This document shows positions 3,265 through 46,381 of a stretch of 46,381 nt of DNA, one piece after another. The position numbers were made by a program, and so were the translations under genes. The notes under the pieces are model-generated. The model made no database searches and had not been told where the DNA came from. It saw only the letters and a list, made by a program, of their open reading frames with translations. Origin of the DNA: Candidatus Poseidoniales archaeon (lineage in GTDB: Archaea > Thermoplasmatota > Poseidoniia > Poseidoniales > Poseidoniaceae); NCBI GenBank assembly GCA_028283345.1, contig JAPOGE010000003.1, forward strand, positions 1-46,381, given 5' to 3'. Within the stretch, counting starts at the first letter, position 1; each line of letters begins with the position of its first letter.

Positions 3265-3342
3265 GGGCGTGTAGCAGAGCGTGGATAATGCACCGGCCTC
3301 CTAAGCCGGGGATCGCGGGTTCAAATCCTGCCGCGCCCGCCA
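3265..3342 (+). tRNA. tRNA-Arg (anticodon CCT), intronless, CCA encoded
   Basis: Acceptor stem GGGCGTG/CGCGCCC; anticodon arm CCGGC-CTCCTAA-GCCGG; T arm GCGGG-TTCAAAT-CCTGC; ends GCCA. Confidence 0.95.
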
Positions 3343-37489: not shown

Positions 37490-38131
37490 CTATTTCTCAG
37501 CGATGAAGCAGTTGTCATCGACCTCGTGAATCTCACCTTGCATCAGCAGATGGTCGAGCGCCTCTTCGATTTCTTCCTCGCTTATCTTGCGCGCAAGGAG
37601 GGTCTCTGCGATCATCTCCAGAGGGGCCGAATCCCTACCTTTGCCGATGATTCGGTGGATTTCAAATAGGATTGATTGGGCGGTTATCGCCAGAAACGGG
37701 TCATCGCTGGGCTCGCCCGGCAACAGGGCGGTCAGATAACTGGCGGGGTGCGGCTCAAGTTCGTCCTCATCGGTTTGGTGAAGATGATTTTGCTTCTGGT
37801 TGTTGGCCCGGCTGCGCTCAACGATATCAAAGCAATCAAACAGATTCCGCTGCTCCCTTCCATCCCCACCAACCTCATCGGCTACCTCGAGTCGCTGTGC
37901 CAGCGACTCGATTCTGAATAAGCGTTGTTCGGCCTGTAATCGGGCGCGCTGCAAATCAATGTCGAGAATCTCTAAATCACCCTCGGCTTTTTCCTGCAAC
38001 CAATCATCAATACACCAATTCGCATCGATTCCAATCATCACATCAGCTAATCGTCGTACCGCCTCTGGGAGGTCGGTGAAGCGGGCTTCCGCTTCGTTTC
38101 CTTCCGAACTATTGTCGTCTCTCACGAACAA
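37490..38131 (-). CDS. Hypothetical protein with coiled coil, PIP-box-like motif and C-terminal winged-helix-like segment
   Basis: Heptad stretch DLQRARLQAEQRL..IESLAQRL; QRNLFDCF; C-terminal EEIEEALDHLLMQGEIHEV. Confidence 0.65.
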   Translation of the reverse strand: MFVRDDNSSEGNEAEARFTDLPEAVRRLADVMIGIDANWCIDDWLQEKAEGDLEILDIDLQRARLQAEQRLFRIESLAQRLEVADEVGGDGREQRNLFDCFDIVERSRANNQKQNHLHQTDEDELEPHPASYLTALLPGEPSDDPFLAITAQSILFEIHRIIGKGRDSAPLEMIAETLLARKISEEEIEEALDHLLMQGEIHEVDDNCFIAEK

Positions 38132-38270
38132 CCTACCTACTGGTGACGGTGTAAGAACCCTACCCCACTAGGGCAACCTTTACTTCCATTGCAACTATAC
38201 TTTCAGTAGGCCGGAAGTACGGCTTTTCAGGTTCCATTGGAAGCAGACCCCAACAGTCCTCCGCCGATAG

Positions 38271-38446
38271 AGGTGAGCACCGGACTGAGGAGCTAATGAC
38301 GAGGGAAGTGCGAAGTGTAGTTACAGGCAGTTCTCCCAGAAGGTGAGCACCGGACAGCCAGATTGAAGGAAGTGCGAAGTATAGTAAGAAGCAGTAATCC
38401 TGAGACGAGAGCACCACAACCCGAGGATTAATTCATAGGTGTGTGC
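38271..38446 (+). repeat. Two tandem copies (70-bp period) of a palindromic repeat plus a trailing GAGCAC/GTGCT hairpin
   Basis: AGGTGAGCACCGGAC at 38271 and 38341; GGAAGTGCGAAGT in both copies. A third copy lies on the minus strand at ~45728-45779. Confidence 0.9.
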
Positions 38447-38505
38447 TGTGAATGAAGTATCTGCATGACGGTCGCGTTCATGTAGGGGGTTTCGGTCGAG
38501 GCAGC

Positions 38506-39684
38506 ATGGTCGACTACCGCATCACCGTACTTCCCGGCGACGGAACCGGCAGAGAGGTCATGGCCGAGGCGGTGCGAATACTCGATGCGATTTCGCAAAG
38601 CACAAATCTCGGATTTGATAAAACCGTCATTCAATGTGGCGGACAACATTTTCTTCAGACCGGCGAGGTCTGGGCTGAAGGCTCCTATGCGGTATGTCGC
38701 GATGACTCCGATGCCATTCTACTCGGTGCAATTGGCTGGCCCGGGGCGCAACTTGAGAATGGTGATATGGCTGGGGGTGAAGTGATTCTGGGTCTGCGCT
38801 CTGGTCTAGACCTCTTTGCGAACATCCGGCCGATAAAACTCTACGAGGGAGTGAAACACAAGATTCATGGCAATTTTTCTCAACAGTGGGATCCTGACAA
38901 GGTCGATCTAGTCGTGCTGAGGGAGAATACCGAGGGGTTGTACCACAGCCTCCTCTGCCGTTCAGCCGCCGCCGCTCAGGGCTTGGAGGAATATGAACCT
39001 CCGGAGCTTGAATTTCCCGGGCTTCATGGCGAGGTGGCGTGGGACCCCCGGCCGATTTCCAAATTCGGCAGTCGTCGTCTGATCGATGCCGGATTCCGCT
39101 TGGCCGGGCGCCGCAATGGCAATCCCGCCGGTGAGACGGTGGTGCATTGTGTCGACAAGAGCAACGTGACCAGAGGTTGCCAATTATTCCGCAAGACCTT
39201 CCATGAGGTTGCTTCAACCTACCCTGAAATCAATGCTGAGCACGCTTATATCGATGCCTTCACCATGTGGTTGGTGCGTAATCCCGAGTGGTTCGACGTA
39301 GTGGTCACGACGAATATGTTCGGCGACATCGTCACCGATCTCGGCAGTGTTCTACAGGGGGGTATGGGTATGGCAGCCAGCGCCAATGTCGGCGACGAGC
39401 ATGGTATGTTTGAGCCGGTGCACGGCTCAGCACCCAAGTACGCCGGACAGAACAAGGTCAACCCGATTGCATCAATTCTCTCGGTGCAGCAGATGCTCGG
39501 CTGGCTCGGCCGGAGAAAGAATGACGAAGCCCTGAACAATGCTTCAAGGGTTGTTGACCAAGCTGTGGCCGAACACCTGATCGAGGGTAAGCAGGTCACC
39601 TACGACCTGGGTGGTAGTTCGACCACCGAGGCGGTCGGGGTTGCTATCGCAGAGCGGGTCAGGTCTATCCTTTCAGAGCAATAG
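38506..39684 (+). CDS. Isocitrate/isopropylmalate dehydrogenase family (beta-decarboxylating dehydrogenase)
   Basis: [50 protein letters not shown]. Confidence 0.92.
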
Positions 39685-44644: not shown

Positions 44645-45433
44645 ATGCGTATCGTCACGTGGAACGTCAACGGCATCCGGGCGGCGATTCGCAAAGGTCT
44701 GGATGAATTCGTCGAGCGAATCGCCCCCGACATCCTCCTGCTGCAGGAGGTGCGGGCGTTTGAGGAGCAACTCCCCAATGGTTGGAAGCCAGAAATGGAC
44801 GAAACAGTTTGGAATCCGGCTGAGAAAAAGGGCTACTCGGGAACAGCGACTTGGGCGAATCGAGAATTCGTCGAAATCGGCCGAGGGATGGAATCGTCAT
44901 TGGACCGAGACGATTCGGAAGGTCGAATCATTCACACCAAACATCCGTTCGCCAACACTTCTCTACATTGTATCAACGTCTACCTCCCCAGCGGCTCGAG
45001 CAAGGAGGAGCGGCAGTTGTACAAGGAGGGCTGGATGGAGGATCTGCTGAACTGGGCACAGCGTTTCACCGACCACGATGAGCCGGTGCTATTGTGCGGC
45101 GACCTGAATATCGCCCATACCGAGAACGATATCTGGAACCCTTCCGGAAACCGTTTCACCTCGGGCTTTCTCCCGCAAGAGAGAGAGTGGTTCAGCAGAT
45201 TACTGGCCAGCGGCTGGCACGACCTGTTCAGGATTAAGGTCGGTGACCAAAAGGGACCCTATTCATGGTGGTCCAATCGTGGCCAGGCCCGTGCTAAGGA
45301 CCGCGGCTGGCGCATCGACTATGTCCTGGCCAATGCCGTGGCGCGGCCAATGCTTGCAGGTGCTGAGATAATGCGAGAAGGTGGATTGGTGGTCAGCGAC
45401 CACGCTCCGGTGATAATTGACTTGGCCGAATAG
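44645..45433 (+). CDS. xth: Exodeoxyribonuclease III / AP endonuclease
   Basis: TWNVNGIRA, LQE, GYSG, EGR, YLPSG, GDLN, GWRIDY, SDHAP. Confidence 0.96.
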   Translation: MRIVTWNVNGIRAAIRKGLDEFVERIAPDILLLQEVRAFEEQLPNGWKPEMDETVWNPAEKKGYSGTATWANREFVEIGRGMESSLDRDDSEGRIIHTKHPFANTSLHCINVYLPSGSSKEERQLYKEGWMEDLLNWAQRFTDHDEPVLLCGDLNIAHTENDIWNPSGNRFTSGFLPQEREWFSRLLASGWHDLFRIKVGDQKGPYSWWSNRGQARAKDRGWRIDYVLANAVARPMLAGAEIMREGGLVVSDHAPVIIDLAE

Positions 45434-45482
45434 TCACCACCGTGTCCGAAAACATTATCCATTGAAAATCAAACCCACGGAT

Positions 45483-45599
45483 ATGGAGAGCGACGGTATA
45501 CCTGGGTTTGAATTTTGGATAGGGGTGGCTTCTATATTGTTGGCCGTTTTTTACACTTATAGAAATCAAGTAATTAATCACCAGACTGAATTTGAATAG
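45483..45599 (+). pseudogene. Isolated PGF-CTERM-like sorting-signal fragment or micro-ORF (38 aa)
   Basis: MESDGIPGFEFWIGVASILLAVFYTYRNQ...; AT-rich; no upstream extracellular domain. Confidence 0.45.
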
Positions 45600-45635
45600 C
45601 CAATAAAAATGGCGTATCCCAACATAGGTCACCCT

Positions 45636-45803
45636 ATGTTCCTGGGAAAAACGTGTTAAAATCTCGGCGCGAGCACTCTACATTGAGAAGCATAAAGCGT
45701 GCTCGTGCCTCAGGAATATTGAATTCTACTGTACTTCGCACTTCCTTCGCCACTGCGTGGCTCAGTCCAGTGCTCACCTCCCGAGTTTAGACGCACAAGC
45801 GTC
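45636..45803. repeat. Composite palindromic repeat: module A + hairpin + reverse copy of the 38.3-kb repeat + module B
   Basis: A = ATGTTCCTGGGAAAAACGTGTTAAAATCTCGG (45636-45667); hairpin GGCGCGAGCAC/GTGCTCGTGCC; ACTTCGCACTTCC...GTCCAGTGCTCACCT; B = GTTTAGACGCACAAGCGTC. Confidence 0.9.
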
Positions 45804-45832
45804 GAATATCACCAGAAATACGGAAAGGTCAG

Positions 45833-46243
45833 TTAGTTATCGTCCATCTTCTTGGGAAATGGCCAACTATCTGGACTCATCCTGGAGTAACGCTTATACC
45901 ACCAAAATACCATGATAATGGCATAAACAGGCATTTGCATTACAAATAATACATGACCGCTGTTATTCCAGTCGAAATATTCTCCTTTCTTCCACATCCA
46001 TGTATAAATCTCCACCGCCCAAAAGAGCCACACGACTGCCCCGGTTAGTAACATCAAACCTTCAAAATAGTAAGCCCCTTTAATCCACGCTTTCGCATTT
46101 ACCATACATTCTGCACAAAACCTTGGTTTCGTATCAACAGTAACTTCCACACCACAGGATCTGCAGTGCAGATGGCCGTCTTGTAGTGAAATTCTGTCAC
46201 GGACTATAGGAGGTAGCATCGCTGACTGTTCGTCTTCGGCCAT
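45833..46243 (-). CDS. Hypothetical zinc-ribbon plus 2-TM membrane protein (AT-rich cargo)
   Basis: CRSCG...FCAEC then two aromatic-rich TM helices. Start taken as the ATG at 46243, downstream of an AT-rich TATA-like tract; the longer ORF reads through repeat DNA. Confidence 0.7.
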   Translation of the reverse strand: MAEDEQSAMLPPIVRDRISLQDGHLHCRSCGVEVTVDTKPRFCAECMVNAKAWIKGAYYFEGLMLLTGAVVWLFWAVEIYTWMWKKGEYFDWNNSGHVLFVMQMPVYAIIMVFWWYKRYSRMSPDSWPFPKKMDDN

Positions 46244-46307
46244 ACCAATCAAAATGTCGGGTAAGGTTGCTACAAATAGTATTTTCATCATTTCAGGGAT
46301 TTGAGGT

Positions 46308-46381
46308 GACGCACAAGCGTCCAGAACCAATGTTCCCGGGAAAAACGTGTTAAAATCCCGGGTTTAGACGCACAAGCGTCC
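46308..46381. repeat. Modules B-A-B of the composite repeat (59-bp period), running off the window end
   Basis: GACGCACAAGCGTCC at 46308 and 46367; the module A copy at 46330-46361 is 30/32 identical to 45636-45667. Confidence 0.9.

Follow-up and report, generated by a model that had tools for sequence, protein, structure and literature searches.

The DNA stretch analysed here (46,381 nucleotides; the window) is contig C135 (JAPOGE010000003.1) of G000, an archaeal metagenome-assembled genome (MAG) of Candidatus Poseidoniales, and its last kilobase, behind the exonuclease gene xth, carries direct copies of two short hairpin modules, A and B, around a gene for a small membrane protein and a dispersed repeat, X. 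We propose, with our confidence evenly balanced, that the modules are att-type sites of non-autonomous mini-cassettes moved in trans by an integrase of the tRNA-Glu type. The end of the window would then mark where a strain-variable row of such units starts in an archaeon resembling Marine Group II. Members of that group are uncultured and count among the most abundant archaea of the plankton; the literature searched contained neither a described integrative element for this group nor a Poseidoniales paper on repeats or cassette arrays. Comparison of the copies suggests that A and X are att-type recombination-site modules, and B probably is one as well. The proposal draws on repeats of a single polarity, their likeness to tRNA, variable neighbours, one pair of an empty and a filled site, a discrete insertion of X and an integrase gene beside one copy of A. 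On this reading, the system is not of the attC type, does not consist of substrates for HUH or repetitive extragenic palindrome (REP) enzymes and is not an assembly artefact.

G000 comprises 2.14 Mb on 201 contigs, is 91% complete and scores 1460 bits with the archaeal small-subunit rRNA model. Throughout, C numbers denote contigs of G000, G001 is its congener and L numbers refer to the compared loci from metagenomes and genomes. The features at the end of the window are the following.

44645–45433, plus strand: xth, exodeoxyribonuclease III family (Pfam Exo_endo_phos, 93 bits), the last core gene before the variable region
45438–45629, plus strand: 192-nt unit with a small open reading frame (ORF) encoding one transmembrane segment (listed as ORF 45417–45599), present or absent between strains and recurring at other loci
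45636–45667, plus strand: module A copy 1, a hairpin with the stem CCyGGGA/TCyCGG, the 3' half of which (GTGTTAAAATCyCGG) resembles the T-arm of tRNA-Glu
45668–45784, plus strand: element X, 117 nt, gene-free and structured, inserted between the CCCGG of A and GTTTAGAC
45785–45803, plus strand: GTTTA and palindrome B copy 1, 30 nt past the stop codon of the minus-strand gene
45833–46291, minus strand: putative cassette gene for a 152-aa zinc-ribbon membrane protein, low GC, orphan family without Pfam match
46308–46321, plus strand: palindrome B copy 2, 16 nt upstream of the ATG of the zinc-ribbon gene, read on the minus strand
46322–46361, plus strand: spacer CAGAACCA and module A copy 2 (A itself at 46330–46361)
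46362–46380, plus strand: GTTTA and palindrome B copy 3 (B at 46367–46380); the contig breaks here

Modules A, B and X

The sequence turns AT-rich right after xth, as the original prediction, an earlier note made from the letters alone, had pointed out: GC falls from 0.55–0.60 before the stop codon (45433) to 0.42–0.45 behind it. Its coordinates for the direct 32-bp copies of A were equally accurate. The copies at 45636–45667 and 46330–46361 agree in 30 of 32 positions, and not one of 100 shuffles produced a match with three or fewer mismatches. Both differences are C>T exchanges in the stem that give G-T pairs on the plus strand, just as described; the conclusion drawn from them, that folding of the single strand is under selection, failed once more copies were compared. 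By manual reading, 9 of the 15 stem changes in 12 variant copies are compatible with wobble pairing and 6 are disruptive.

Module A is not restricted to this locus. It is present in seven copies on five contigs of G000, in the congener and in 48 metagenome stretches. The latter were picked by an exact 24-nt pattern from A, and identity inside the pattern is thus given by construction. G000, G001 and the metagenome contigs together provide 64 distinct real copies among 66 matches. Among the species genomes searched, A was found only in the lineage of the congener, the A-B junction being present twice in G001 and in none of 59 other relatives, and viral contigs contained no match to A. All eight contigs with two exact matches carry both on one strand, 333–1432 nt apart; no locus has A in both orientations, and all copies of A and B on a contig point the same way. 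The consensus unit begins on the left with B-CAGAACCA or nnACCCA, continues with ATGTTCCCGGGAAAAACGTGTTAAAATCCCGG and then GTTTA-GACrCACAAGsGTC and frequently has a further module, CGTACTTAAACCCGTTCAAATCCCC, behind it. Of the 60 copies whose left flank is long enough, 17 have a B upstream of A, and B-CAGAACCA-A is the common form among these. At the right junction, after AAAATCCCGG, 54 of 64 copies are of the GTTTAGAC type, seven read CrCGAGCA, two read TTAAATCC and one is cut off.

What the original prediction missed is that A, judged by base matches, resembles the T-arm and acceptor end of tRNA-Glu. With the right junction CACGAGCA, it matches the 3' end of tRNA-Glu in 21 of 23 bases; over 23 bases, GTGTTAAAATCCCGGCACGAGCA has two differences from the stretch of the tRNA-Glu(ttc) of G000 itself that comprises T-loop, T-stem and acceptor end. 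The first copy in the window is followed by CGCGAGCA, the acceptor 3' strand and discriminator of the tRNA-Glu(ctc) on C141. On the proposed reading, A is a mimic of the tRNA-Glu T-arm that ends in the core AAATCCCGG. A search of 45300–46381 against Rfam gave nothing significant (best E value 1.3). When L090:1434–1497 is compared with C32:2035–1981 of G000, another hairpin module, GGGGTGCCCTTTACTTCAGGG, is seen behind the same SDR gene in place of A and ahead of GTTCAGAC-B; similar modules occur at C182:991 and in L061. On contig C7 of G001 (L024, 329–405), 77 N follow directly after the A downstream of xth, and the sequence resumes inside the C module.

Palindrome B (GACGCACAAGCGTC) stands in direct copies at 45790, 46308 and 46367, exactly where it had been placed. 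Within the window this is only mildly above chance, with an expectation of 0.37 at up to two mismatches and 3 of 100 shuffles reaching three matches. In the whole G000 genome, 13 matches with at most one mismatch compare with none for the reversed control. B is part of a longer imperfect palindrome of about 24 bp, GTAyG-GACrCACAAGsGTC-CrTAC. B-like palindromes (GACCCACAAGCGTC and exact B) were also seen near contig ends in further genomes of the order, at G038:C18:50, C18:1023, C41:72 and G002:C34:43, and B may be older and more widespread than A. It could serve as a second binding site, as a site for an Xer-like or serine recombinase, or as an RNA hairpin at gene borders.

The 117 nt between the first A and the first B are, as far as the sequence tells, a discrete dispersed repeat and not a spacer, which had also been overlooked. 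Self-BLAST assigns 45652–45785 to a family, X, with 22 matches in G000, two in G001 and none in 39 other relatives. The copy in the window is 91–93% identical to the stretch directly behind tRNA-Glu(ttc) on C182. One locus was found in two states: C149 has no X and reads A|GTATAGAC, and L056 has X and reads TCCCGG|CGCGAGCA...CTCCCGG|GTTCAGAC, with TCCCGG as the common core. X is thus a discrete insert between the CCCGG of A and GTTTAGAC, and the interval between the first A and the first B is itself a mobile mini-element. In five places X lies directly behind real tRNA genes (Glu-ttc, Glu-ctc, Gly-ccc, Ala-ggc and Lys-ctt), and a further copy of the tRNA 3' end closes it; this copy is perfect for tRNA-Lys on C199 (17 of 17 bases), nearly so for tRNA-Glu(ctc) on C141 (13 of 14) and weaker elsewhere. 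In the 5' hairpin of X, the acceptor 3' strand pairs with a complement further downstream, and this hairpin varies along with the tRNA; the inner hairpin shows compensatory changes, too. Note that RNAalifold recovered only one helix from 21 copies and that the other hairpins of X were judged by eye.

A further copy of X was noticed at 38270–38414 (minus strand) of the window, far from any tRNA, in the gap between the ORFs 37490–38131 (minus) and 38452–39684 (plus). Many copies (on C124, C16, C118, C148, C55 and C44 and at C168:38082) are preceded by GAGGGCGACCGGACA...ATGTCTnCCGG and then CACGAGC, with no tRNA; this preceding module looks like another A-like pseudo-T-arm end. A second dispersed family of 80–170 nt, unrelated to X, is present at C7:2140–2228, at C194:3730–3829 and on about 20 other contigs. 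Its copies adjoin tRNA-Ser(gct) on C7 and tRNA-Ser(tga) on C11, and three stand in tandem on C165. An interpretation of A and X as C/D-box RNAs or tRNA introns was dropped after inspection by eye because no box spacing fits.

Variable neighbours, empty sites and filled sites

The product of the zinc-ribbon gene has a CxxC...CxxC motif and hydrophobic stretches. Twelve relatives were found, all of them metagenomic and on contigs of at most 7.5 kb. In L090 the gene follows an SDR gene, and in G000 it follows X. The 114 nt at 46209–46322, comprising the leader, B and the N-terminal residues, are 96% identical to the beginning of another cassette gene, which encodes 132 aa (L069, L074), and protein P0011 is 100% identical to the zinc-ribbon query over 18% of its length. 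By sequence comparison, N-terminal modules appear to be common to different cassette genes. The units between the sites are mostly of low GC (0.36–0.49) and usually hold one ORF without Pfam match; some encode DUF4190, SAP, TM2, pentapeptide, GmrSD, HNH or methyltransferase domains.

For an analysis of shuffling, loci were cut at A and B and the segments clustered, two heterogeneous clusters being excluded and overlapping loci counted once per contig. By manual reading, the neighbour across a site differs between occurrences in 16 of the 19 segment families that recur. The statement that the modules flank variable genes in relatives is thereby borne out, and the sites are always in direct orientation. 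The xth locus provides a clear example: the gene is 92–95% identical in L076, L082 and L087 and 93% identical in contig C7 of G001, and a different array lies behind each. X and the zinc-ribbon gene follow in G000, family f5 in L076 and f10 in L082. A lies directly behind the xth stop codon in L082, L087 and G001:C7. Likewise, the core flank on C163 is preceded by three different cassettes.

Several loci are known in more than one state, as the original prediction had suggested looking for. A contig from sequencing run X3 joins 45437 to 45630 and skips 192 nt, with 74 letters on the shorter side of the joint and an ambiguity of four letters. The skipped 192-nt unit, together with A, recurs in L050 (at the site on C146), in L064 (after an AKR cassette) and in L076. 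The site on C146 is empty in G000 and reads GGGTTCAACTCCCGGT|AAAATCC; L054 and L060 have an insert of 1.5 kb there with A at its end and only TCCCGGT in common at the junctions, and L050 has a different cassette with the same right junction. The target resembles a T-arm; neither ARAGORN nor Rfam recognizes it as a tRNA. Together with C149 and L056 for X, these loci provide the empty and filled alleles. Other joints in the Logan contigs, two that go back and were considered as traces of an excised circular form (46319>45630 and 46376>46312) and one that skips (45803>46330), lie in repeats and were not counted as evidence.

These observations are consistent with cassettes of 0.3–1.5 kb, usually with one low-GC gene and with none in the case of X, that would end in a yCCGG-type core and sit behind another yCCGG core, be it a real tRNA T-arm, a pseudo-T-arm or another A. 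The crossover would fall within yCCGG.

It might be argued that the cassettes are only apparent and stem from fragmented or chimeric assembly of metagenomes around a promoter or terminator module present in many copies. The MAG is in 201 contigs, many A and B copies lie at contig ends, several different continuations follow B copy 3 in the same public runs (loose ends at 46376–46380), and the summed contig depth over A-B is about 10–30 times that of the flanks, a value that is not a copy number. Against this stand the same arrangements in independent assemblies (L054 and L060; L069 and L074; C135, L090 and Logan contigs of three studies), the skip joint of the 192-nt unit with its four ambiguous letters, and the repeats themselves, which are shorter than Illumina reads. 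At the end of the window, Logan contigs from four runs of three studies cover 44956–45673 and 45767–46352, and the independent JGI contig L090 reproduces 45832–46380 at 97%. The doubt raised about a duplication at a contig end is thereby settled, and we consider assembly artefacts an improbable explanation for the cassette behaviour in general.

Candidate recombinases

Among 127 ORFs in the metagenome loci, one encodes a tyrosine recombinase (PF00589, 66 bits; XerA model, 101 bits). It is located in L080, directly after B-A|CACGAGCA and an ORF of 168 aa, and it is Xer-like, with only 21% identity to the XerA-like gene of G000. Homologues with 36–42% identity were found in 4 of 151 family genomes, and in all three relatives fetched the gene lies just downstream of tRNA-Glu; viral contigs yielded no relative. 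In G102 the core ATCCCGGTACGAGCA occurs three times, delimiting an integrase element of 6.1 kb and, behind it, a cassette of 1.1 kb with one gene. This locus (L097; G102:C4, 11576–18868) consists of tRNA-Glu(ctc), the integrase element, whose cargo includes PLD-nuclease- and SNF2-helicase-like genes, and the 1.1-kb unit, with a 36-nt pseudo-tRNA-end repeat closing each.

The cassettes would be non-autonomous, and the likely enzyme would be an Xer-like tyrosine integrase of the tRNA-Glu-targeting family, whose gene would reside on a separate element that part of the cells in the population carry and the G000 MAG lacks. That an L080-type integrase, or any site-specific enzyme at all, moves the cassettes is our inference. 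The search for a co-occurring recombinase asked for in the original prediction was therefore successful in part: a tyrosine recombinase stands beside A in L080, and it is absent from G000, where HUH and RAYT (REP-associated tyrosine transposase) genes were not found either. The window contains no tyrosine recombinase, and G000 none apart from its XerA-like gene (C115:612–1697, 195 bits).

A number of points weigh against movement of the cassettes by such an enzyme. No L080-type integrase was found in G000 (91% complete), G001 or G002; an integrase lies within 2 kb of A in only 1 of 46 metagenome loci, and L080 shares no unique sequence with G000. The majority of A copies (54 of 64) continue with GTTTAGAC-B and not with a tRNA end, and there is no tRNA gene at the xth locus, ARAGORN calling in the window only a tRNA-Arg at 3265. 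X behind different tRNAs carries the end of each tRNA, which is hard to explain with a single attP. Not all break points fall at the same base: TCACC repeats flank the 192-nt unit, whose left boundary is off the yCCGG core in two of four contexts, and at many junctions B stands by itself. The genes point either way with respect to the sites; of 44 internal segments, partly redundant, 27 count as minus, 16 as plus and 1 as none. No circular cassette junction was shown. In addition, the metagenome loci were selected by the exact 24-nt pattern, and some of the contigs may be chimeric at repeats of 50–80 nt.

In principle, B could be the real crossover site, a dyad recognized by the XerA of the host or by the serine recombinase encoded on C179, with A and X as accessory or passenger sequences. 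Full-length B, GTACGGACG-CACAAG-CGTCCGTAC, has inverted arms of 9–10 bp around an asymmetric 6-bp centre, and Xer sites are described as having arms of 11 bp and a spacer of 6 bp (PMC2958812). B alone is also found at junctions with different neighbours (f11[B]f80 and f11[B]f12; f83[B]f19 and f17[B]f19), and G000 has one XerA-like gene and one gene with a resolvase domain. However, B is unlike the printed dif of P. abyssi, which has the inner arms ATATAA/TTATAT, and a single dif-like site of that type is present elsewhere in G000. This site, C49:288–315, is the only one in the genome with 9/11 inverted arms (...ATAA-N6-TTAT...) and a candidate chromosomal dif for the XerA-like gene. A crossover at B would, moreover, leave the junctions between A and tRNA ends unexplained. 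We attach little probability to this alternative.

The serine recombinase ORF at C179:5017–5958 (minus strand; Resolvase domain, 122–124 bits) was also considered as a mover in its own right and rejected, having no link to A or B. Its catalytic part is sporadic among relatives, and in G001 and G002 only the C-terminal piece finds a match. Residues 211–263 correspond to part of a host protein, conserved and about 475 aa long, that most family genomes encode, and the ORF may be an insertion scar or a fusion. Profile searches of G000 gave no match to PF01797 (HUH Y1/RAYT/TnpA), in a setting in which the control search detected PF01797 in 6 of 14 known genomes, none to PF07282 (TnpB) and none to PF01867 (Cas1-type casposase). 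Palindrome elements derived from IS200/IS605 and casposons were discarded on these grounds, and so was the suggestion that the modules are HUH/REP substrates.

Relation to known repeat and cassette systems

Mosaics of short extragenic palindromes with many copies at gene ends are typical of the REP sequences and bacterial interspersed mosaic elements (BIMEs) of bacteria, together with RAYT. A, B and X could be extragenic hairpin repeats of this kind, strain differences then arising by ordinary homologous or illegitimate recombination and with no dedicated recombinase, a reading that we regard as doubtful. The hairpins, formed by RNA or DNA at the borders of each gene, would serve in transcript ends, stability or protein binding, which we hold to be equally doubtful. 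In line with such a role, the modules form mosaic combinations, and all copies inspected lie between ORFs, including those beside housekeeping genes such as those for Amt, malic enzyme/PTA, a Cys/Met pyridoxal phosphate enzyme, AKR and SDR. B is located 12–70 nt after stop codons or 16–195 nt before starts, the A-B composite folds as three independent local hairpins, and the minus strand of A, by manual reading, contains ATTTTAAC, which resembles a TATA element and lies some 60 nt ahead of the zinc-ribbon ATG. B-like motifs are enriched in G002 (six matches as compared with none in the control), and no recombinase is found near the sites in G000. Unlike in REP/BIME systems, however, no RAYT or HUH gene was found in G000, and the copies are strictly direct and not arranged as inverted REPIN pairs. 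They bound variable genes, and the mixed orientation of these genes speaks against a strand-specific function as promoter or terminator. At C146 the insertion and its target have just 7 nt in common, which would not suffice for homologous exchange. A matches the end of tRNA-Glu in 21 of 23 bases, an integrase gene adjoins an A site, and the variable positions 4 and 11 of B show no compensatory change.

A true integron cassette array, that is, a cluster of attC sites lacking an integrase (CALIN) with divergent attC, is very improbable and close to refuted. Integron-like features are the spacing, the single genes per unit and the direct orientation of the sites, and integrons and CALINs have been reported in archaeal MAGs (PMC9668308). 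As described there, integrons resemble the present arrays in their rows of small, mostly single-gene, promoter-poor units, their direct hairpin sites and the frequent absence of a recombinase. Yet a regular-expression search for the inverted cores R'' (RYYYAAC) and R' (GTTRRRY), 40–130 nt apart, found no pair on either strand of 45400–46381, the nearest forms being GTTTAGAC and GTTAAAAT with one extra base each. That the canonical attC ends are lacking had been stated from the outset and is correct. In the minimum-energy fold of 46300–46381, either strand forms three separate local hairpins and no long bipartite one. The ORFs are not co-oriented, and the sites are related to tRNA ends. With the IntI model (TIGR02249; cut-off 265 bits), the top match of the genome scan of G000 scores 58.5 bits, the ORF concerned scores 99.8 bits when scanned as a protein, and the L080 integrase reaches 31 bits. 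The analogy to attC drawn in the original prediction is therefore untenable, as is the link to HUH and RAYT proteins. Its broader idea of a gene-capture system fared better, with the recurrence of the modules, the variable genes, the empty and filled alleles and a candidate tyrosine recombinase acting in trans.

Modules bounded by short dyad sites without a recombinase of their own reportedly also exist as Xer-dependent systems, such as the pdif modules of Acinetobacter plasmids and the integrative mobile elements exploiting Xer (IMEX). The arrays resemble them in that gene modules lack their own recombinase, the inverted arms of B enclose a centre of 6 bp, and a XerA is encoded by the host. 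They differ in that B is unlike known dif sequences and the sites are direct and not alternating; on our side, the comparison is one of sequences alone.

The closest kinds are tRNA-targeting integrase islands and integrons. Among the former are the tycheposons of Prochlorococcus, described by Hackl et al. as tyrosine-recombinase elements that lie side by side at tRNA genes, with only partial tRNA copies between them, and whose integrase-less remnants and scattered partial tRNAs build strain-variable islands in which integrase-bearing copies are rare (bioRxiv 10.1101/2020.12.28.424599). Features of that description that recur here are repeats of tRNA ends, strain-variable islands, an abundant ocean microbe and a rare integrase. 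In contrast to tycheposons, the host is an archaeon, the units measure 0.1–1.5 kb and usually hold one gene, the integrase belongs to a different Xer-like group, and arrays are also found where there is no tRNA gene. In place of a plain partial tRNA, the repeat is a 32-nt mimic of the T-arm, its loop enlarged, to which hairpin B is joined. By analogy, the system would work like a cross between tycheposon islands and integrons.

We tentatively extend the proposal of att-type mini-cassettes, as a possibility that falls short of even confidence, to a Marine Group II lineage that runs an integron-like gene-capture system of independent origin. Dozens of mini-cassettes with one gene or none and with T-arm-mimic ends (an A or X end) would be inserted and excised in trans at yCCGG by a tRNA-Glu-type, Xer-like integrase, and the system would have spread from tRNA-Glu to chromosomal pseudo-T-arms, building the flexible genome. 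Even on a modest reading, the repeats account for the fragmentation of MAGs of this lineage into numerous small contigs of low GC. If the extended proposal is true, it would explain the turnover of gene content between strains of Marine Group II archaea, it would add a second, independently evolved cassette system beside integrons, and it would provide defined sites and an integrase to try as a genetic tool.

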